From the NCBI RefSeq assembly GCF_003334765.1, contig NZ_QOWT01000001.1: a DNA stretch of 64,000 nt, one strand, 5' to 3'. The position numbers and the translations under genes were made by a program. Shown one piece after another: positions 16,790 to 63,502 of this stretch (its first letter is position 1; the number at the start of each line of letters is the position of its first letter). The DNA is from Escherichia coli (GTDB taxonomy: Bacteria > Pseudomonadota > Gammaproteobacteria > Enterobacterales > Enterobacteriaceae). The notes beneath the pieces were generated by a model that was not told the DNA's origin, ran no database searches, and saw only the letters and a list, made by a program, of their open reading frames with translations.

Positions 16790-16893
16790 GTGTTGCGGTC
16801 TTCCTGTGTCGCTACTGCTTATCGGCTAATTATCCTGCGTCTTGAGCGCAACAAAGCGGGGAAAAGACGCGGATTACGGTGCTACCTCTGACG

Positions 16894-23707: not shown

Positions 23708-24050
23708 GTTTTGTAACCTGTTGACTATGCTTGTTTATTATATCCGATCCCACAGCGTGGGGCATGGATGGGGCAAACTCACTCAATTTCTGGTTTAAAA
23801 TGGATACCTGATCCTGAAAGTTTTCTGCCATCCACGATCCGTAAACGCGATAACATGTTTTGTCTTCGCTTTGCTCCCAGGAAGAGTGAACTCATTCGTT
23901 AGCCTGGGGTTCCTTCTGATCATTATTGTTCCTGCCTTTATCTCTTGCCACGCCAGAGCCCCCTGGATACACATACACCAGGATGAAAACGGTGAGTTGT
24001 GTTCAAACTGTAGTACAATTCTCTCCAGTATGAACAGGAAAGAATATGCT

Positions 24051-24383
24051 ATGAACCCTTATATTTATCTTGGTGGCGCAATACTTGCAGAGGTCATTGG
24101 TACAACCTTAATGAAGTTTTCAGAGGGGTTTACACGGTTATGGCCCTCTGTTGGCACAATTATTTGCTATTGTGCATCATTCTGGTTATTAGCTCAGACG
24201 CTGGCTTATATACCTACAGGGATTGCTTATGCTATCTGGTCAGGCGTCGGTATCGTTCTGATTAGTTTGCTTTCCTGGGGATTTTTTGGTCAACGACTGG
24301 ACCTGCCAGCTATCATAGGCATGATGTTGATTTGTGCCGGTGTGTTAGTCATTAACTTGTTGTCACGAAGTGCACCGCATTAA
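24051..24383 (+). CDS. emrE: SMR-family multidrug efflux transporter EmrE
   Basis: ORF track 23871..24383; internal ATG 24051 gives 110 aa MNPYIYLGGAILAEVIGTTLMKFSEGFTRLWPSVG... with four TM segments. Confidence 0.85.
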   Translation: MNPYIYLGGAILAEVIGTTLMKFSEGFTRLWPSVGTIICYCASFWLLAQTLAYIPTGIAYAIWSGVGIVLISLLSWGFFGQRLDLPAIIGMMLICAGVLVINLLSRSAPH

Positions 24384-24551
24384 AAAATAATTATCCTTGA
24401 GATAACAGGAATCTGATTTGTGCATATTATGGCTAATGTTCGGGGCACCTTTATAATTATGATTGCATTTGCGCGATCATTGCGCCTTTATGCATAATGA
24501 GATCAAGGCACATCAAATAAAATAACGATAGGTCACAACAATGAGGTTTTT

Positions 24552-25103
24552 ATGAAAAAACTTATCGTTTCAAGTGTATTGGCATTCATAACATTTTCTG
24601 CGCAGGCCGCAGCATTTCAGGTCACTAGTAATGAAATAAAAACAGGAGAGCAACTTACAACGTCTCATGTATTTTCTGGATTTGGGTGTGAAGGTGGTAA
24701 TACATCGCCCTCATTAACCTGGTCTGGTGCTCCTGAAGGCACCAAAAGCTTTGCCGTAACTGTGTATGATCCAGATGCTCCTACAGGCAGTGGATGGTGG
24801 CACTGGACTGTTGCTAATATTCCAGCAACTGTAACATATTTGCCCGCTGATGCAGGAAGACGTGATGGTACAAAACTTCCGACTGGTGCTGTTCAAGGCC
24901 GAAATGATTTTGGTTATGCAGGATTTGGTGGAGCATGTCCTCCCAAAGGAGATAAACCCCATCATTACCAGTTTAAAGTATGGGCTCTAAAAACTGATAA
25001 AATTCCTGTGGATTCTAATTCCAGCGGAGCGTTAGTTGGTTATATGCTTAATGCCAATAAAATTGCAACCGCTGAGATAACACCAGTTTATGAGATAAAG
25101 TAG
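24552..25103 (+). CDS. ybcL: periplasmic PEBP/RKIP-family protein YbcL
   Basis: 183 aa ORF with signal peptide and PEBP-like motifs (VYDPDAP..., GDKPHHYQFKVWAL). Confidence 0.8.
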   Translation: MKKLIVSSVLAFITFSAQAAAFQVTSNEIKTGEQLTTSHVFSGFGCEGGNTSPSLTWSGAPEGTKSFAVTVYDPDAPTGSGWWHWTVANIPATVTYLPADAGRRDGTKLPTGAVQGRNDFGYAGFGGACPPKGDKPHHYQFKVWALKTDKIPVDSNSSGALVGYMLNANKIATAEITPVYEIK

Positions 25104-25112
25104 GGTAAGAGT

Positions 25113-25910
25113 ATGCTGGCAAAAGATAAGACTAACCTAAAGATTGAAGAAATACGGATGCATAAACATCATGAGATTCACAGGGTTAAGCCTCTTATGC
25201 CAGCTTTATGTCGTATCCGTCAGGGAAAAAAAGTTATCAATTGGGAGACGCATAGTCTAACTGTTGATAATAATCAGATAATATTATTTCCCTGTGGATA
25301 TGAATTTTATATTGCGAATTATCCAGAAGCAGGTCTTTATCTTGCAGAAATGCTTTATTATCCCATTGATCTAATTGAAAAGTTTCAAAAATTTTATGCG
25401 ATAACTGATCAAATTCGTAACACGACAGGTTTCTGCTTACCTCAGAACCCCGAGTTAATATATTGTTGGGAGCAACTAAAAACATCTATTTCCCGAGGCT
25501 TCTCAACGCAAATTCAGGAACACTTAGCAATGGGCGTTCTACTTTCATTAGGAGCACATCATGTTAATTGTTTACTTTTATCAGATAGTAAACAATCATT
25601 AATAAGTCGTTGTTATAACCTAATGCTATCCGAACCTGGAACAAAATGGACAGCAAACAAGGTAGCGAGATATCTCTACATTTCTGTTTCCACATTGCAT
25701 CGCCGTCTGGCAAGCGAGGGAGTAAGTTTTCAAAGTATATTGGACGACGTGAGGTTAAATAATGCGTTGTCTGCTATACAAACGACAGTAAAACCCATCA
25801 GCGAGATTGCCAGGGAAAATGGTTACAAGTGTCCTTCTCGTTTTACTGAAAGGTTCCATAATCGTTTTAAGATAACACCAAGAGAGCTAAGAAAAGCGTC
25901 CAGAGAGTAA
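25113..25910 (+). CDS. ybcM: AraC-family transcriptional regulator YbcM-like
   Basis: 265 aa ORF with C-terminal AraC-type HTH; very AT-rich. Confidence 0.75.
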
Positions 25911-26066
25911 AAGTATTTTATGAAGGAGCAACAGCATCGATTTTTATTTTGGAAAATAAATACGGCATACTCAACCTATTGGAGTCTGAACAATCCGGTG
26001 ACTTCTGCGCTAATCGGGGACGTTTCTAAGCACATATAATTGATACTATCTTCCTCCATCACAATT

Positions 26067-26591
26067 TCAGAAATGCACGTGTGATTTTTTTGCATCCGGC
26101 GTTTGGACTATGTGGAGCTCAAGAGTGGGAAAGTTACAAGAGGTTGAGGGGATAATTAAAGGGATGCTTATGACATTAGATATCCGGTTAGGTGCGGATA
26201 TCGTTGTTATTAAATCTAGTTGATACGTTAAGATGCAGCTACTGACAAAATAGCCAGGACTCCACAAAACGCCTTTGTCGTAATACCTGACTGCAATATC
26301 TGGTCGATCTCGTCGCAGTAACCTACTCGATACGCCTTTGAGGCTGTTTACCAGACTGGATATCGCCAGTTTGGGAGGATAGTTAATTAACAAATGGACG
26401 TGATCTGGTCCGCCATCCATTTCAACCCGTTCAGCTTCAAAATCAGCACATACATTTGAAAAGTAAGTGCGTAGTTTTTCTGTCGCGTCATGGTCAAAAA
26501 TCTGACGTCGGTATTTAGTAACGAAGACTAGGTGAACATGCTTCAGGAAAACACAATGCCTTCCGCGTCGGATATCGGTTTCTTTTTTCAT
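26067..26591 (-). CDS. tnpA: IS200/IS605-family transposase TnpA (HuH Y1), possibly 3'-altered
   Basis: ORF track 26067..26636; MKKETDIRRGRHCVFLKHVHLVFVTKYRR... with HuH motif HVHLL; C-terminal tail is low-complexity and longer than typical TnpA. Confidence 0.7.
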   Translation of the reverse strand: MKKETDIRRGRHCVFLKHVHLVFVTKYRRQIFDHDATEKLRTYFSNVCADFEAERVEMDGGPDHVHLLINYPPKLAISSLVNSLKGVSSRLLRRDRPDIAVRYYDKGVLWSPGYFVSSCILTYQLDLITTISAPNRISNVISIPLIIPSTSCNFPTLELHIVQTPDAKKSHVHF

Positions 26592-26905
26592 AGGCCAAAG
26601 TATGATTTGGCCCATGAAACGACTACAGGCATTCAAATTCCGGTTAAGACCAGGTGGTCAACAGGAGCGTGAAATGAGGCGCTTCGCAGGCGCATGTCGT
26701 TTCGTTTTCAATCGTGCTCTGGCGCTTCAGAATGAGAATCATGAGGCCGGTAATAAATACATCCCTTACGGGAAAATGGCTTCCTGGTTGGTTGAGTGGA
26801 AAAATGCCACTGAAACGCAATGGCTTAAAGATTCGCCCTCACAGCCATTGCAACAGTCACTGAAAGACCCTGAGCGGGCTTACAAAAACTTCTTCCGGCT
26901 TCGTC
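26067..26905. mobile_element. degenerate IS200/IS605-family insertion sequence (tnpA plus 5' fragment of tnpB)
   Basis: Divergent tnpA / tnpB start codons about 25 bp apart; tnpB homology ends after about 95 codons; exact ends not determined. Confidence 0.6.
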
Positions 26906-31430: not shown

Positions 31431-31840
31431 CAGACTGGGTCCTGAATCAAAGAAGGGGAGAGTAAAGACTCTTTCCAGGCATCGGCAATATTGCGCATTA
31501 ATGCTTCCACTTCTTCGACTGCGGAGACATCGTTACGTAAATTGGCTTGCAGCAAGCGCCTGACCATATAGCTATAAAGAGCAATCAAGTTTTGGGTTAA
31601 TTCGTCTTTGCTATCTTCATCAAGACTCACCCGCAGTCCGTTCTCAATGATGTTGATCGCTTTTGACAAAGAGACGCCTTTGCCTTGCTGATTGTTGTCC
31701 TGCATAAACAGGCGCGCTCTAACCAGTGCGCTCAGCACTCCATCAAATAGCATGGTGACCAGCTGCTGCTGGCTGGCGCTCATTACGGCGCTTTCGACGC
31801 CAATTTGTGCATAGGCTTTTGAGCCGCTCGCGGTATACAT
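31430..31840 (-). CDS. fliS: flagellin-specific chaperone FliS
   Basis: 136 aa ORF. Confidence 0.9.
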
Positions 31841-31854
31841 GCTGACCTCCGTGA

Positions 31855-33267
31855 TCAGGAATTACTCATTGCAGTAAATTGTTGGCTGAGATAGGTACTG
31901 GTGTTATTCAGTTTGCTCATCATGGTATCTAATTGCGTAAACTGTGCAGTGTAACGCGCCACGGTGTCATCAATGCTGGCACTGACGGATAGATACTGTT
32001 TGGTCAGTTTTTTCAGTGTGGCGTTAATACTGTCCTGTGCGCTATCAATAATGCCATCATCGGCAAGGTAACCTTTTACCTCGGTGGTAATTTTGGTGGT
32101 AATTCCTGTTTCTTTACCATCGCCTACCAGCAATTCACGTACGGATGCTGTATTTTCATTCAGGACTTTTTTGAGTTTATCATCATCAATTTTCAGCTTA
32201 CCCGTCGTGCCGTCCTGCTTAATCCCGATCTCGTTTAATGTTTTGAAGGCACCGTCGCTGGCACCGTTTGCAAATTGTGCGCGGATGCCGCTTTGAATTG
32301 TACGTACAACGCTGTCTCCGAGAAGTGCACCATTATTTTTATCTTGTGCTTCAGCACCTGGGTCTACTTCTTTATATTTTGTCAGGGTGTTAAAGGTGTC
32401 AATGAGGGAGTTATATGAATCCACCCAGCCTTTAATTGCTTCGGTTGCTTTATCGTTGCTTTTTGTCACCGTGACCCGGACGTCAGTGACTTTTTTGGTC
32501 AAATCGAGAGTCACTCCCTGAGGAGCATCGGTAATTTTGTTACTTGAACGTTCAATATCGATACCGTTAACGTTTAGCTGTGCATTTTGCGCGTTAACCA
32601 GTTCCTTCATATTCCCGGTGTTGGTCTTGCTGTCATAAGCCAGCAGATCATTTAATTTACTGTCACCCTCAACAGATATGGTCATTTTATTGGCCAGACC
32701 TTCACTGGCGGTCAATACCAATTGATAGTCACCATCTTTGACTTTAACGATACTAGCGGAAATTCCACTATCGGCATCGTTAATGGCTTTGCTGATCTCA
32801 CCCAATGACGTCTGATCTTTATTGAGCTTGATTTCCAGCGGCTCTTTACGGCCGTCTTGGGTAATTTTTATTGTGCGTGTATCTGATGACTCATCACCCA
32901 GTGCATCTTTTGTTGATGCAATGATTGTCGGGGAATCAGTTCGTAAAGATTGCGCCTGCGCCAGTTGGGTTACGCTGATGGTATAGATACCGGGGGCAGC
33001 ACCTGCTTCGGTGGAAACTTTAAGGTCTTCATTGCTACTGGTAACGGTAGTGCTTTTGAACAGATCGGCTTTATTTAACGCAGTATTTGCAGTCTGGAAT
33101 TTTTCTAATGCACTTTTTAATGTGCCATAGGCTGTCAGACGTGCGGTATTGTCACTCTGTTGCTGAGTAATTGGGTTTAAGCGTTTTTTTTCAGCGATGG
33201 TCAGGTTGTTTAGCAATGTATCCAGCGGCAGATTCGAACCAACGCCAAGAGATGTAAATGAAGCCAT
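31855..33267 (-). CDS. fliD: flagellar filament cap protein FliD (divergent allele)
   Basis: ORF track 31855..33345; start at ATG 33265-33267 giving MASFTSLGVGSNLPLDTLL...; 470 aa. Confidence 0.88.
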   Translation of the reverse strand: MASFTSLGVGSNLPLDTLLNNLTIAEKKRLNPITQQQSDNTARLTAYGTLKSALEKFQTANTALNKADLFKSTTVTSSNEDLKVSTEAGAAPGIYTISVTQLAQAQSLRTDSPTIIASTKDALGDESSDTRTIKITQDGRKEPLEIKLNKDQTSLGEISKAINDADSGISASIVKVKDGDYQLVLTASEGLANKMTISVEGDSKLNDLLAYDSKTNTGNMKELVNAQNAQLNVNGIDIERSSNKITDAPQGVTLDLTKKVTDVRVTVTKSNDKATEAIKGWVDSYNSLIDTFNTLTKYKEVDPGAEAQDKNNGALLGDSVVRTIQSGIRAQFANGASDGAFKTLNEIGIKQDGTTGKLKIDDDKLKKVLNENTASVRELLVGDGKETGITTKITTEVKGYLADDGIIDSAQDSINATLKKLTKQYLSVSASIDDTVARYTAQFTQLDTMMSKLNNTSTYLSQQFTAMSNS

Positions 33268-33305
33268 ACCTAATTCCTTTTGATTGCAAACAGTAGATAA
33301 GCGGG

Positions 33306-33332
33306 TTATCGGCAATTTGTGCGCAAAGTTTA
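33306..33332 (-). promoter_or_regulatory. sigma-28 (FliA) promoter of fliDST
   Basis: Minus strand reads TAAACTTT-N11-GCCGATAA about 35 bp upstream of the fliD start. Confidence 0.7.
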
Positions 33333-33425
33333 ATAGTTGATTCACGAAGATGATGCGCAGAGTAGAGTTGTATATTACGGATATTTCAGCCGTTAAGAAA
33401 AAACAGGAGAGAAACTAAAATTTTC

Positions 33426-33452
33426 TAAAGTTCGAAATTCAGGTGCCGATAC
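33426..33452 (+). promoter_or_regulatory. sigma-28 (FliA) promoter of fliC
   Basis: TAAAGTTC-N11-GCCGATAC about 70 bp upstream of the fliC ATG. Confidence 0.7.
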
Positions 33453-33521
33453 AAGGGGTACGGTGAGAAACCGTGGGCAACAGCCCAATAACATCAAGTT
33501 GTAATTGATAAGGAAAAGATC

Positions 33522-35015
33522 ATGGCACAAGTCATTAATACAAACAGCCTGTCGCTGTTGACCCAGAATAACCTGAATAAATCTCAGTCTTCTCTGAGCT
33601 CCGCCATTGAACGTCTCTCTTCTAGCCTGCGTATTAACAGTGCTAAAGATGACGCAGCAGGTCAGGCGATTGCTAACCGTTTTACGGCAAATATTAAAGG
33701 TCTGACTCAGGCTTCCCGTAACGCGAATGATGGTATTTCTGTTGCGCAGACCACTGAAGGTGCGCTGAATGAAATTAACAACAACCTGCAGCGTATTCGT
33801 GAACTTTCTGTTCAGGCAACTAACGGTACTAACTCTGACAGTGACCTGACCTCCATCCAGTCCGAAATCCAGCAACGTCTGAGTGAAATTGACCGTGTTT
33901 CTGGTCAGACTCAGTTTAACGGCGTTAAAGTGCTGGCTTCTGATCAGGATATGACTATTCAGGTTGGTGCAAACGACGGCGAAACAATTACTATTAAACT
34001 GCAGGAAATTAATTCCGACACACTGGGATTATCTGGTTTTGGTATTAAAGATCCTACTAAATTAAAAGCCGCAACAGCTGAAACAACCTATTTTGGATCG
34101 ACAGTTAAGCTTGCTGACGCTAATACACTTGATGCAGATATTACAGCTACAGTTAAAGGCACTACGACTCCGGGCAAACGTGACGGTAATATTATGTCTG
34201 ATGCTAACGGTAAGTTGTACGTTAAAGTTGCCGGTTCAGATAAATCCCCTGAAAATGGTTATTATGAAGTTACTGTGGAGGATGATCCGACATCTCCTGA
34301 TGCAGGTAAGCTGAAGCTGGGGGCTCTAGCGGGTACCCAGCCTCAAGCAGGTAATTTAAAGGAAGTCACAACGGTGAAAGGGAAGGGGGCTATTGATGTT
34401 CAGTTGGGTACTGATACCGCAACCGCTTCTATCACAGGTGCAAAACTCTTTAAGTTAGAAGACGCTAATGGCAAAGATACTGGTTCATTTGCGTTGATTG
34501 GTGATGACGGTAAACAGTATGCAGCGAATGTTGATCAGAAAACAGGTGCAGTTTCCGTTAAAACAATGTCTTACACTGATGCTGACGGTGTCAAACACGA
34601 CAATGTTAAAGTTGAACTGGGTGGAAGCGATGGCAAAACCGAAGTTGTAACTGCAACCGATGGCAAAACTTACAGTGTTAGTGATTTACAAGGTAAGAGC
34701 CTGAAAACTGATTCTATTGCAGCAATTTCTACGCAGAAAACAGAAGATCCTTTGGCTGCTATCGATAAAGCACTGTCTCAGGTTGACTCGTTGCGTTCTA
34801 ACCTAGGTGCAATTCAAAACCGTTTCGACTCTGCCATCACCAACCTTGGCAACACCGTAAACAACCTGTCTTCTGCCCGTAGCCGTATCGAAGATGCTGA
34901 CTACGCGACCGAAGTGTCTAACATGTCTCGTGCGCAGATCCTGCAACAAGCAGGTACTTCTGTTCTGGCACAGGCTAACCAGACCACGCAGAACGTACTG
35001 TCTCTGCTGCGTTAA
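33522..35015 (+). CDS. fliC: flagellin FliC (H-antigen; variable central domain)
   Basis: 497 aa ORF MAQVINTNSLSLLTQNNLNKSQSSLSSAIERL... ...AQANQTTQNVLSLLR. Confidence 0.93.
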   Translation: MAQVINTNSLSLLTQNNLNKSQSSLSSAIERLSSSLRINSAKDDAAGQAIANRFTANIKGLTQASRNANDGISVAQTTEGALNEINNNLQRIRELSVQATNGTNSDSDLTSIQSEIQQRLSEIDRVSGQTQFNGVKVLASDQDMTIQVGANDGETITIKLQEINSDTLGLSGFGIKDPTKLKAATAETTYFGSTVKLADANTLDADITATVKGTTTPGKRDGNIMSDANGKLYVKVAGSDKSPENGYYEVTVEDDPTSPDAGKLKLGALAGTQPQAGNLKEVTTVKGKGAIDVQLGTDTATASITGAKLFKLEDANGKDTGSFALIGDDGKQYAANVDQKTGAVSVKTMSYTDADGVKHDNVKVELGGSDGKTEVVTATDGKTYSVSDLQGKSLKTDSIAAISTQKTEDPLAAIDKALSQVDSLRSNLGAIQNRFDSAITNLGNTVNNLSSARSRIEDADYATEVSNMSRAQILQQAGTSVLAQANQTTQNVLSLLR

Positions 35016-35026
35016 TCGCCGCTATA

Positions 35027-35048
35027 TTCTGCCAAACCCCGCTCCGGC
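35027..35048 (+). terminator. Rho-independent terminator of fliC
   Basis: ccccgctccggcgggg hairpin followed by tttttt. Confidence 0.75.
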
Positions 35049-35180
35049 GGGGTTTTTTCTACCCGGCAAATAGCCGTAACCCCCAAATAACCCCTCATTT
35101 CACCCACTAATCGTCCGATTAAAAACCCTGCAGAAACGGATAATCATGCCGATAACTCATATAACGCAGGGCTGTTTATC

Positions 35181-35900
35181 GTGAATTCACTCTATACCGC
35201 TGAAGGTGTAATGGATAAACACTCGCTGTGGCAGCGTTATGTCCCGCTGGTGCGTCACGAAGCATTGCGCCTGCAGGTTCGACTGCCCGCGAGCGTGGAA
35301 CTTGACGATCTGCTACAGGCGGGCGGCATTGGGTTACTTAATGCCGTCGAACGCTATGACGCTCTACAAGGAACGGCATTTACAACTTACGCAGTGCAGC
35401 GTATTCGTGGCGCTATGCTGGATGAACTTCGCAGCCGTGACTGGGTGCCGCGCAGCGTGCGTCGCAACGCGCGTGAAGTGGCACAGGCAATAGGGCAACT
35501 GGAGCAGGAACTTGGCCGCAACGCCACGGAAACTGAGGTTGCGGAACGTTTAGGGATCGATATTGCCGATTATCGCCAAATGTTGCTCGACACCAATAAC
35601 AGCCAGCTCTTCTCCTACGATGAGTGGCGCGAAGAGCACGGCGATAGCATCGAACTGGTTACTGATGATCATCAGCGAGAAAACCCGCTACAACAACTGC
35701 TGGACAGTAATCTGCGCCAGCGGGTGATGGAAGCCATCGAAACGTTGCCGGAGCGCGAAAAACTGGTATTAACCCTCTATTATCAGGAAGAGCTGAATCT
35801 CAAAGAGATTGGTGCGGTGCTGGAGGTCGGGGAATCGCGGGTCAGTCAGTTACACAGCCAGGCTATTAAACGGTTACGCACTAAACTGGGTAAGTTATAA
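35181..35900 (+). CDS. fliA: flagellar sigma factor sigma-28 FliA
   Basis: 239 aa sigma-70-family ORF. Confidence 0.93.
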   Translation: MNSLYTAEGVMDKHSLWQRYVPLVRHEALRLQVRLPASVELDDLLQAGGIGLLNAVERYDALQGTAFTTYAVQRIRGAMLDELRSRDWVPRSVRRNAREVAQAIGQLEQELGRNATETEVAERLGIDIADYRQMLLDTNNSQLFSYDEWREEHGDSIELVTDDHQRENPLQQLLDSNLRQRVMEAIETLPEREKLVLTLYYQEELNLKEIGAVLEVGESRVSQLHSQAIKRLRTKLGKL

Positions 35901-41152: not shown

Positions 41153-41610
41153 TTATTTTCCTCGTCATGTTGCAATGAAAATTTGCGGTGAAAAATGTTA
41201 AGGCGGCGGAGTATACCATAAGCTTTGCTAAAAATAGCAGTGGTTGTTTTTTGAGCGTGATATCGGCAGTGCTATAAAATACGTTAATATAATGACCAAT
41301 AAATATTTTTATCATGAATGTTTTTTGCCCGTATTGTTCGGGTTAATTAATGTTACATATTCAGCGGGCTGATTTTCATTTTTGCTGAATAAAGGTAATT
41401 TTTGTCACATTTCGTCGCAGGGCTTACTGTGAAACGATCCGGTAAGCCGTTGGTGACGGGCGTGACCATAACTGTGGACAATCGAATTGACAAAAACGAG
41501 AGAAAAATCGAATACCCACCATTTTTAACGTTTCAAAGTTGCAATAAAAACCGCTAATATACGAATGACTAACTATCAGTAGCGTTATCCCTATTTCTGG
41601 AGATATTCCT

Positions 41611-53426: not shown

Positions 53427-56782
<3,356 letters not shown>

Positions 56783-57217: not shown

Positions 57218-57987
57218 AACCTGTTCCTTATTCTGTGAACTTCAGGTGACATTAAAGCTTTACTCCTAATGGAGAAACGACGCAATCCCAACTCAGTCAA
57301 ACAGGTAAATATTAGTCTGATTATTAGTAAATACAATTAATCAATCACTCCCGGTGATCATATGATTTCAACTGTAATTATAAGAAAATAATGTACTGAT
57401 TCCCCGTATTAAACAAGTGGTTAATATATGCAAAACATTTTATTAACATTAAGTTGATTGTTGCCTTTCTTTGTATCTAATTAGTTTGTTGTGCGGTAAG
57501 TGTCTGTTTAAAAATAGCTTATCTGGTATTGCATGAAAGTGATTATTTATAGCAGATGATTATTTACGGTGAGTTATTTTAACTGTGCGCAACATCCCAT
57601 TTCGATTATTCCTGTTTCATTTTTGCTTGCTAGCGTAGCGAAAAACTTTTTAACAGATTGAAATACACCCAAAACAAAAGTATGGCTTATACATTTATGT
57701 TAAGTAATTGAGTGTTTTGTGTGATCTGCATCACACATTATTGAAAATCGCAGCCCTCCTCCGTAGTATGTGCGTGTAGTGACGAGTACAGTTGCGTCGA
57801 TTTAGGAAAAATCTTAGATAAGTGTAAAGACCCCCTTCTATTTGTAAGGACTTATTAAACCAAAAAGGTGGCTCTGCTTATTGCAGCTTATCGCAACTAT
57901 TCTAATGCTAATTATTTTTTGCCGGGTCTTCCCGGCGACATCACGGGGTGCGGTGAAACCGCATAAAAATAAAGTTGGTTATTCTGG
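57218..57987. promoter_or_regulatory. flhDC upstream regulatory region (AT-rich, no insertion element visible)
   Basis: About 770 bp AT-rich intergenic region between divergent uspC and flhD with no transposase ORF. Confidence 0.6.
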
Positions 57988-58347
57988 GTGGGAATAATGC
58001 ATACCTCCGAGTTGCTGAAACACATTTATGACATCAACTTGTCATATTTACTACTTGCACAGCGTTTGATTGTTCAGGACAAAGCGTCCGCTATGTTTCG
58101 TCTCGGCATAAATGAAGAAATGGCGACAACGTTAGCGGCACTGACTCTTCCGCAAATGGTTAAGCTGGCAGAAACCAATCAACTGGTTTGTCACTTCCGT
58201 TTTGACAGCCACCAGACGATTACTCAGTTGACGCAAGATTCCCGCGTTGACGATCTCCAGCAAATTCATACCGGCATCATGCTCTCAACACGCTTGCTGA
58301 ATGATGTTAATCAGCCTGAAGAAGCGCTGCGCAAGAAAAGGGCCTGA
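57988..58347 (+). CDS. flhD: flagellar master regulator FlhD
   Basis: 119 aa [30 protein letters not shown]... (true start may be a few codons downstream). Confidence 0.9.
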
Positions 58348-58349
58348 TC

Positions 58350-58928
58350 ATGAGTGAAAAAAGCATTGTTCAGGAAGCGCGGGATATTCAGCTGGCAATG
58401 GAATTGATCACCCTGGGCGCTCGTTTGCAGATGCTGGAAAGCGAAACACAGTTAAGTCGCGGACGCCTGATAAAACTTTATAAAGAACTGCGCGGAAGCC
58501 CACCGCCGAAAGGCATGCTGCCATTCTCAACCGACTGGTTTATGACCTGGGAACAAAACGTTCATGCTTCGATGTTCTGTAATGCATGGCAGTTTTTACT
58601 GAAAACCGGTTTGTGTAATGGCGTCGATGCGGTGATCAAAGCCTACCGTTTATACCTTGAACAGTGCCCACAAGCAGAAGAAGGACCACTGCTGGCATTA
58701 ACCCGTGCCTGGACATTGGTGCGGTTTGTTGAAAGTGGATTACTGCAACTTTCCAGCTGCAACTGCTGCGGCGGCAATTTTATTACCCACGCTCACCAGC
58801 CTGTTGGCAGCTTTGCCTGCAGCTTATGTCAACCGCCATCCCGGGCAGTAAAAAGACGTAAACTTTCCCAGAATCCTGCCGATATTATCCCACAACTGCT
58901 GGATGAACAGAGAGTACAGGCTGTTTAA
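58350..58928 (+). CDS. flhC: flagellar master regulator FlhC
   Basis: 192 aa ORF with zinc-binding Cys cluster. Confidence 0.92.
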
Positions 58929-63358: not shown

Positions 63359-63386
63359 TTCTCCCGATTTCCTCAATTGAAATGAA

Positions 63387-63414
63387 CCCGATGATCTGCG
63401 CATCGGGTTTTTTA
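63387..63414 (+). terminator. Rho-independent terminator after cheW
   Basis: cccgatgatctgcgcatcggg hairpin followed by tttttta. Confidence 0.7.
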
Positions 63415-63444
63415 TTTCAATTTCGCGGCGGGTGGCATCAGCAA

Positions 63445-63471
63445 TAAAGTTTCCCCCCTCCTTGCCGATAA
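63445..63471 (+). promoter_or_regulatory. sigma-28 (FliA) promoter of tar
   Basis: Perfect TAAAGTTT-N11-GCCGATAA about 30 bp upstream of the tar ATG. Confidence 0.8.
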
Positions 63472-63502
63472 CGAGATCAACTTGTTTTCAGGAAGGTGCC
63501 TT

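Follow-up and report, generated by a model that had tools for sequence, protein, structure and literature searches.

The question raised by this locus is whether the sigma-28-like elements ahead of tar, fliC and fliD are promoters read by FliA, and what they reveal about gene starts, transcription units and the state of the flagellar regulon in the strain that carries them. The window, i.e. the whole stretch of 64,000 nucleotides of Escherichia coli DNA that was analysed (contig NZ_QOWT01000001.1), runs in the opposite orientation to MG1655, of which it spans ~2.036 Mb to 1.972 Mb. Its gene order is fliR…fliE, fliDST, fliC, fliAZ, housekeeping genes, flhDC, motAB-cheAW and the 5′ end of tar, which is cut at the window end with its first 166 codons present. 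The window is colinear with strain 1428 (99.998% identity over 12500-55500), and gene names were transferred from the annotations of strain 1428, strain 504211 and MG1655. The IS1H of MG1655 is not present in the window, its empty site lying at ~57692-57699, about 300 bp upstream of the flhD ATG at 57997, where two window/MG1655 alignment blocks share an 8-bp overlap. In the fliE-yedF interval (~23854-26883) the window carries emrE, ybcL, an HTH regulator, an IS200/IS605 tnpA and two gene fragments, where K-12 instead has yedK, yedL, yedN and intG.

A first-pass annotation of the window had reported sigma-28 elements upstream of the three genes, and took them to support the gene starts and operon structure and to show that the class 3 flagellar regulon is intact. 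Direct reading and pattern search recover all three elements where they had been placed (Table 1), and the consensus that was used, TAAAGTTT-N11-GCCGATAA, is the published one for FliA (PMC2859248). That the elements are true promoters, used by RNA polymerase with FliA (sigma-28) as its sigma factor, is highly probable. This reading is based, as what follows demonstrates, on where the elements lie, on their sequence and its statistics, on their conservation, and on identity to sites bound in experiments; their activity and start sites in this strain we infer from the sequence. As FliA-dependent promoters should, the sites have both octamers at an 11-nt spacing, the right orientation and a unique position, an intact fliA in the same window, and octamers under selection next to a free spacer.

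As FliA promoters, those of tar, fliC and fliDST are well known and belong to textbook biology, and, being among the best-characterised alternative-sigma promoters, they bring nothing new for biology. Their value is for annotation: for tar, fliC and fliD, both transcription unit and start codon are confirmed, and the strain possesses the sigma factor and cis-elements that late flagellar and chemotaxis expression requires. FliA, FlhD and FlhC of the window are each 100% identical to their K-12 counterparts, and 27 of the 27 complete flagellar and chemotaxis CDSs in the window are full-length. To call the class 3 regulon intact on these grounds was nevertheless an overstatement, and we do not conclude it, because the window breaks off within tar and leaves out most class 3 operons. 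Located outside the window are tap-cheRBYZ, flgKL, flgMN (which includes the anti-sigma factor gene, flgM), tsr, trg, aer, ycgR and pdeH.

Table 1. Promoter elements, start codons and neighbouring features of the window
Feature	Position	Strand	Details
tar (tar-tap-cheRBYZ) FliA/sigma-28 promoter	63445-63472	+	16/16 consensus; top PWM match (26.6 bits)
tar -35 TAAAGTTT	63445-63452	+	11-nt spacer
tar -10 GCCGATAA	63464-63471	+	
tar predicted transcription start	63477-63480	+	motif-centre-to-TSS rule
tar ATG	63503	+	sequence/ORF reading
cheW end	63358		
Intrinsic terminator of motAB-cheAW	63384-63416	+	terminator scan; 10-bp stem 63384-63410, then T-run
fliC FliA/sigma-28 promoter	33426-33453	+	14/16 consensus; PWM 15.8 bits
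fliC -35 TAAAGTTC	33426-33433	+	
fliC -10 GCCGATAC	33445-33452	+	
Two tandem fliC leader hairpins (predicted)	33460-33486	+	ACGGT/ACCGT 33460-33474; GGGC/GCCC 33475-33486
fliC ATG	33522	+	sequence/ORF reading
fliDST FliA/sigma-28 promoter	33305-33332	-	15/16 consensus; PWM 21.5 bits
fliD -35 TAAACTTT	33332-33325	-	
fliD -10 GCCGATAA	33313-33306	-	
fliD ATG	33267	-	sequence/ORF reading
fliA (sigma-28 gene)	35181-35900	+	intact 239-aa ORF; RefSeq annotation
fliAZ FliA-dependent (autoregulatory) promoter	35129-35156	+	K-12 FAT 91; PWM 15.8 bits
motAB-cheAW FliA promoter	58859-58886	+	K-12 FAT 101; PWM 22.4 bits
fliLMNOPQR FliA site, in dual class 2/3 promoter region	16818-16845	-	K-12 FAT 18; PWM 12.5 bits
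Weak intragenic FliA site antisense to otsA	55626-55653	-	K-12 FAT 2; PWM 15.4 bits

Motif matches, chance expectation and other FliA sites

FliA recognises a TAAAGTTT-like -35 octamer together with a composite GCCGATAA-like -10 octamer 11 nt downstream, and transcription starts ~7-8 nt past the -10. The anti-sigma factor FlgM keeps FliA inactive until the hook-basal body is complete, and is then exported. A stringent match is needed in both octamers because sigma-28 melts DNA poorly (10.1101/188474), and single substitutions in either octamer have been published to abolish sigma-28 activity at the E. coli aer promoter. Bacillus subtilis sigma-D belongs to the same sigma family and has a similar bipartite recognition, and can complement an E. 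coli fliA deletion (preprint 10.1101/188474), although it acts in a different organism and differs in regulon membership. A follow-up study using dRNA-seq placed the transcription start sites of well-characterised flagellar FliA promoters 18-22 bp downstream of the motif centre, and the predicted starts and leaders of tar, fliC and fliD were computed with this rule.

The tar element (63445-63471, +) reads TAAAGTTTCCCCCCTCCTTGCCGATAA and has no mismatches to the consensus, the fliD element (33306-33332, -) reads TAAACTTTGCGCACAAATTGCCGATAA with one mismatch, and the fliC element (33426-33452, +) reads TAAAGTTCGAAATTCAGGTGCCGATAC with two; the spacer is 11 nt long in all three. Under uniform base composition, the numbers of matches expected per window are 3e-5 with no mismatches, 1.4e-3 with one and 0.032 with two. 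When up to three mismatches are allowed, the window contains 8 matches against 0.67 expected (sd 0.73), and none of 100 dinucleotide shuffles reaches 8.

The first-pass annotation had proposed a position weight matrix (PWM) scan for FliA sites as the check on its claim. Since circularity had to be avoided, the matrix was built only from sites outside this chromosomal region, namely 43 published FliA ChIP-seq motifs (PMC4183435, Table 2). The scan ranks tar first, motA second and fliD third, and these are the top three matches in the 128 kb searched, while the fliA, fliC, otsA-antisense and fliL sites score lower (Table 1). The maximum per shuffled window was 14.8 +/- 1.9 bits, the largest being 21.7. 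Judged by these null maxima, tar and fliD stand out window-wide, whereas fliC alone does not, its score falling within their range. Locally the picture is simpler: none of the three intergenic regions holds a strong candidate besides the claimed site (next best at most 5.4 bits), and in its region of 254 nt the fliC site is the only candidate (next best 5.4 bits). All three sites are correctly oriented and precede the start codons of flagellar or chemotaxis genes by 30-70 nt.

It could be argued that the three matches are chance occurrences, in intergenic DNA, of a 16-base AT-rich/GC-mixed pattern that has no promoter function. The fliC score taken alone would permit this, lying as it does inside the null maxima, and a lookalike that scores as well or better, at 41259-41286 (-), corresponds to no reported K-12 FliA peak. 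However, the expected counts are minute and the observed count is matched by no shuffle; the sites have the right orientation and distance from their start codons; at tar, the same sequence has been shown by experiment to be bound and FliA-dependent; and the positions of the fliD and fliC sites are kept in 74-81 of 81 species (fliD/fliC) with their spacers left free. Chance is thus effectively refuted already, and we give it next to no credence compared with the reading of the elements as FliA promoters.

The lookalike itself, TAACGTATTTTATAGCACTGCCGATATC, is the fourth best match in the window at 17.7 bits. It is located within the small ORF yecU, ~107 nt upstream of the yecF ATG, and is identical in MG1655 (1995684-1995711), where it is absent from the 52 published FliA ChIP-seq peaks, so that either it is a lookalike without function or it falls under the detection threshold. 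Because a match of this strength is no reported K-12 peak, a motif match alone is not proof of binding; conversely, the strongly bound fliC site reaches only 15.8 bits, and consensus or PWM scores are insufficient by themselves. Sigma-70-like matches near the sites (63420-63391, -; 33393-33421, +) occur at chance frequency and were dismissed.

At least seven FliA sites in the window are documented in K-12. The three that had been listed were correct, but four others, at motA, fliA, fliL and antisense to otsA, had been missed; the 28-mers of all four are identical to K-12 ChIP-seq sites (PMC4183435). The motA promoter lies inside the 3′ end of the flhC CDS (58350-58928) and is a published “duon”, constraining FlhC Ala177-Asp178 and serving as the source of the sigma-28-dependent sRNA MotR. 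The annotated 5′ end of MotR (MG1655 1977302) corresponds to window position 58892, 7 nt past the -10 octamer of motA, which agrees with the dRNA-seq spacing rule. For the otsA-antisense site, no expression change or regulated RNA was detected in K-12 (PMC4183435).

The tar promoter and the transcription unit it heads

The tar 28-mer of the window, TAAAGTTTCCCCCCTCCTTGCCGATAAC, is identical to the K-12 FliA site found by ChIP-seq, which has a FAT of 57 and whose gene loses its RNA (251 to 0) in a fliA deletion (Fitzgerald et al. 2014, PMC4183435). In K-12 this is the class 3 promoter of tar-tap-cheRBYZ (“meche”, PMC4183435), with which the window shares the 28-mer, the position after the cheW terminator and the distance to the ATG, there being no difference in the element itself. 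The predicted tar leader is ~23-26 nt long and contains a Shine-Dalgarno sequence, AGGAAGG, at 63490-63496. The predicted fliC and fliD leaders likewise end at ATGs with Shine-Dalgarno sequences, which bears out the gene starts given for all three genes.

The intrinsic terminator after cheW is found 35 nt before the tar -35. As this terminator is followed by the tar promoter, tar-tap-cheRBYZ forms a unit separate from motAB-cheAW, and the operon structure proposed earlier is upheld; the tar promoter would drive the genes from tar to cheZ as their own unit past the terminator.

Of 5426 complete E. coli genomes, 5381 have the 221-bp region upstream of tar and 3059 the exact 36-mer around the tar motif, so that ~43% of complete genomes differ from the window inside the 36-mer. 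In six sampled E. coli variants the changes are confined to the C-rich spacer, the T-run of the terminator, and the flank or base after the -10, and both octamers and their 11-nt spacing are constant. E. coli MB50 (NZ_CP073949.1, 1901285-1904352) has a uspC-IS1-tar junction, at which an IS1-associated deletion has removed flhDC through cheW, motAB-cheAW included, together with the tar promoter, leaving tar promoterless.

On the minus strand, 63378-63455 matches Rfam C0465 (RF00116), a candidate sRNA, with 111.6 bits. The conservation of the cheW-tar intergenic region, including the tar -35, might accordingly be ascribed to an antisense sRNA and not to the tar promoter, and the match does overlap the -35 octamer, by 11 nt. 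However, the structure modelled for C0465 is the cheW terminator hairpin read in reverse complement, MG1655 as currently annotated has no C0465, and overexpressing it gave no motility or biofilm phenotype (PMC4606813). The -10 element, which is equally invariant, lies beyond C0465, and no convincing minus-strand sigma-28 promoter is found ahead of it. The FliA ChIP and the RNA-seq of the fliA deletion account directly for the tar site. On these points C0465 was rejected as a rival account of the sequence upstream of tar: that the conservation is owed to it is extremely improbable, and the match does not compete with the reading of this element as a FliA promoter.

Allele lineage and conservation of the fliD-fliC region

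The fliD-fliC module of the window (31816-35037) is an allele divergent from that of K-12, and for this reason the fliC and fliD motifs also differ from those of K-12. The K-12 data for these two promoters therefore transfer to the window through position and conservation, not through identity. The two strains share the back-to-back divergent layout of the fliC and fliDST promoters, the 11-nt spacers and the distances to the start codons, whereas the K-12 intergenic region, of a different allele lineage, can not be aligned to that of the window outside conserved islands. At least three deeply diverged classes of the fliD-fliC intergenic region occur in E. coli, and in an alignment of three of them the islands of conservation are each sigma-28 motif pair, the start codons, and a portion of the fliC leader. 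The window-type allele is found in ~860 of 5426 complete E. coli genomes (about 16%), among them O111:H8, O100:H21, O26 strain RM8426 and ETEC H10407.

FliD of the window is ~49% identical to FliD of K-12, E. coli E69 and E. whittamii, against 85.5% identity to Salmonella enterica subsp. arizonae and ~81% to two Citrobacter genomes among those compared. Over its 254 nt, the intergenic region has 82-84% identity to those of Citrobacter and Salmonella arizonae and diarizonae, and the fliC 28-mer, TAAAGTTCGAAATTCAGGTGCCGATACA, placed 69 nt from the ATG, is the same in S. enterica subsp. arizonae and diarizonae, Citrobacter sedlakii and C. amalonaticus. These systems differ from the window, whose host is E. 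coli, in the central part of flagellin, FliC being ~48-59% identical overall. Such a pattern suggests that the whole fliD-fliC module, promoters included, may reflect inter-genus exchange or an ancient polymorphism.

For comparison across species, one genome per species was taken and loci were anchored on the conserved start of the flagellin CDS rather than on the promoter, yielding 86 Enterobacterales loci; promoter counts cover the 81 loci, one per species, that have 300 nt or more of upstream sequence. In 81 of the 81 species a fliC-directed site scores 12 bits or higher, 66-102 nt before the ATG, while for null chunks of 400 nt cut from these loci the median is 4.9 bits, the 95th percentile 10.7 and the 99th percentile 15.0. 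The divergent fliD-type site reaches at least 16 bits in 74 of 81 species, and TAAACTTT-N11-GCCGATAA is invariant among the 57 unique fliD-type sequences that these provide. Column by column, the unique sequences hold ~2 bits at the -35 and -10 (essentially invariant) and 0.1-0.7 bits in the spacer, the cross-species patterns being TAAAG.T. / G.CGATA for fliC and TAAACTTT / GCCGATAA for fliD. Conserved octamers with free spacers are, in these alignments, the signature expected of selection on sigma-28 recognition elements.

At the fliC promoter the full sigma-28 consensus occurs in none of 85 Enterobacterales loci. The lineage-typical forms present in these 85 loci include TAAAGGTT/GACGATAAC in 43, TAAAGTTC/GCCGATACA, which is the window type, in 15, and TAAAGGTT/GCCGATACC in 12. 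Two short contigs in a “Collinsella sp.” MAG (JAIJJM010000281.1 and JAIJJM010000335.1) also carry E. coli-type fliD-fliC regions, one K-12-type and the other 100% identical to the intergenic allele of the window; their presence in this MAG is almost certainly due to binning contamination.

Regulation of fliC and fliDST

In K-12 the fliC site has a FAT of 110, and fliC RNA falls from 2319 to 11 in the fliA deletion (PMC4183435). Flagellin would be driven from this promoter in the window as well, with a predicted start at ~33458-33461 (+) and a leader of ~61-64 nt. The K-12 promoter has the form TAAAGGTT…GACGATAA, and that of the window TAAAGTTC…GCCGATAC. We found no paper that prints the window-type fliC promoter, and a search for “GCCGATAC” with fliC returned only unrelated primer matches.

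The difference in the -10 touches on a second kind of regulator. TldR proteins, RNA-guided repressors of host fliC encoded by prophages, use a GTTAT TAM and bind across the fliC -10 (PMC10705468). The K-12/Enterobacter-type GACGATAAC contains ATAAC, i.e. the GTTAT TAM on the opposite strand, and among the fliC forms it is the only type to do so, the window-type GCCGATACA (33445-33453) being devoid of it. One might then see in the module a cassette of Salmonella/Citrobacter lineage with its own sigma-28 pair, in which the two departures of the fliC promoter from the consensus are a lineage-fixed variant that, lacking the TAM, is resistant to TldR. We regard this as unlikely, and any functional meaning of the missing TAM as speculation; if true, intrinsic resistance to phage-driven flagellin replacement could help to maintain the allele in E. 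coli.

The fliD element has a predicted start at ~33297-33300 (-) and a predicted leader of ~30-33 nt, and its -10 differs from that of K-12 (…ACCGATAA in K-12, …GCCGATAA in the window). In K-12, FliA occupies the fliD site (ChIP-seq FAT 43), and fliD RNA changes from 633 to 356 in the fliA deletion, which is not significant (PMC4183435). Published K-12 data also show that fliDST RNA drops to 3 in flhD or flhC deletions, that the operon is bound by FlhDC in ChIP-qPCR, and that it is nearly independent of FliA in exponential phase. A published fliD-lacZ fusion had no FliA-dependent activity, owing to the adjacent FlhDC/sigma-70 promoter, and overexpression of fliA in an flhD deletion increases the RNA of all dual targets. 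From these K-12 results, fliDST is best classed as dual, belonging to both class 2 and class 3 rather than to class 3 alone; the fliD promoter would add late FliA-dependent transcription to that from the FlhDC-activated sigma-70 class 2 promoter. No class 2 promoter was located in the sequence of the window. The contribution of FliA to fliD is probably small under laboratory conditions. Since fliDST is dually regulated, the “class 3” label should be applied operon by operon: the earlier use of it for all three promoters is appropriate for tar and fliC, whose RNA is lost in the K-12 fliA deletion, but not for fliDST.

A stronger version of the same data would hold the fliD element to be vestigial or minor, with fliDST essentially class 2 (FlhDC and sigma-70) and the sigma-28 motif negligible. 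The collapse of fliDST RNA in the flhD and flhC deletions, set against its insignificant change in the fliA deletion and the silence of the lacZ fusion towards FliA, would fit this. However, FliA does occupy the K-12 site, overexpressed fliA raises dual-target RNA even in an flhD deletion, and the two fliD octamers are invariant across genera while the spacer between them drifts, which argues for purifying selection on the sigma-28 site itself. A vestigial element is therefore very unlikely, and the fliD element is retained as a FliA promoter of a dually regulated operon.

Downstream of the fliC promoter, two tandem hairpins are predicted at the start of the leader (Table 1). When 30 fliC leaders were aligned with MAFFT, RNAalifold gave no structure, because variable loop lengths put the 3′ arms out of register. 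In single-sequence folds, which are weaker evidence than a proper structural alignment, two 5′-proximal hairpins are predicted in 53 of 60 unique fliC leaders from other species, with stems that vary by lineage (e.g. CGGC/GCCG and GGGT/ACCC), and this is consistent with a conserved predicted structure at the 5′ end of the fliC leader.
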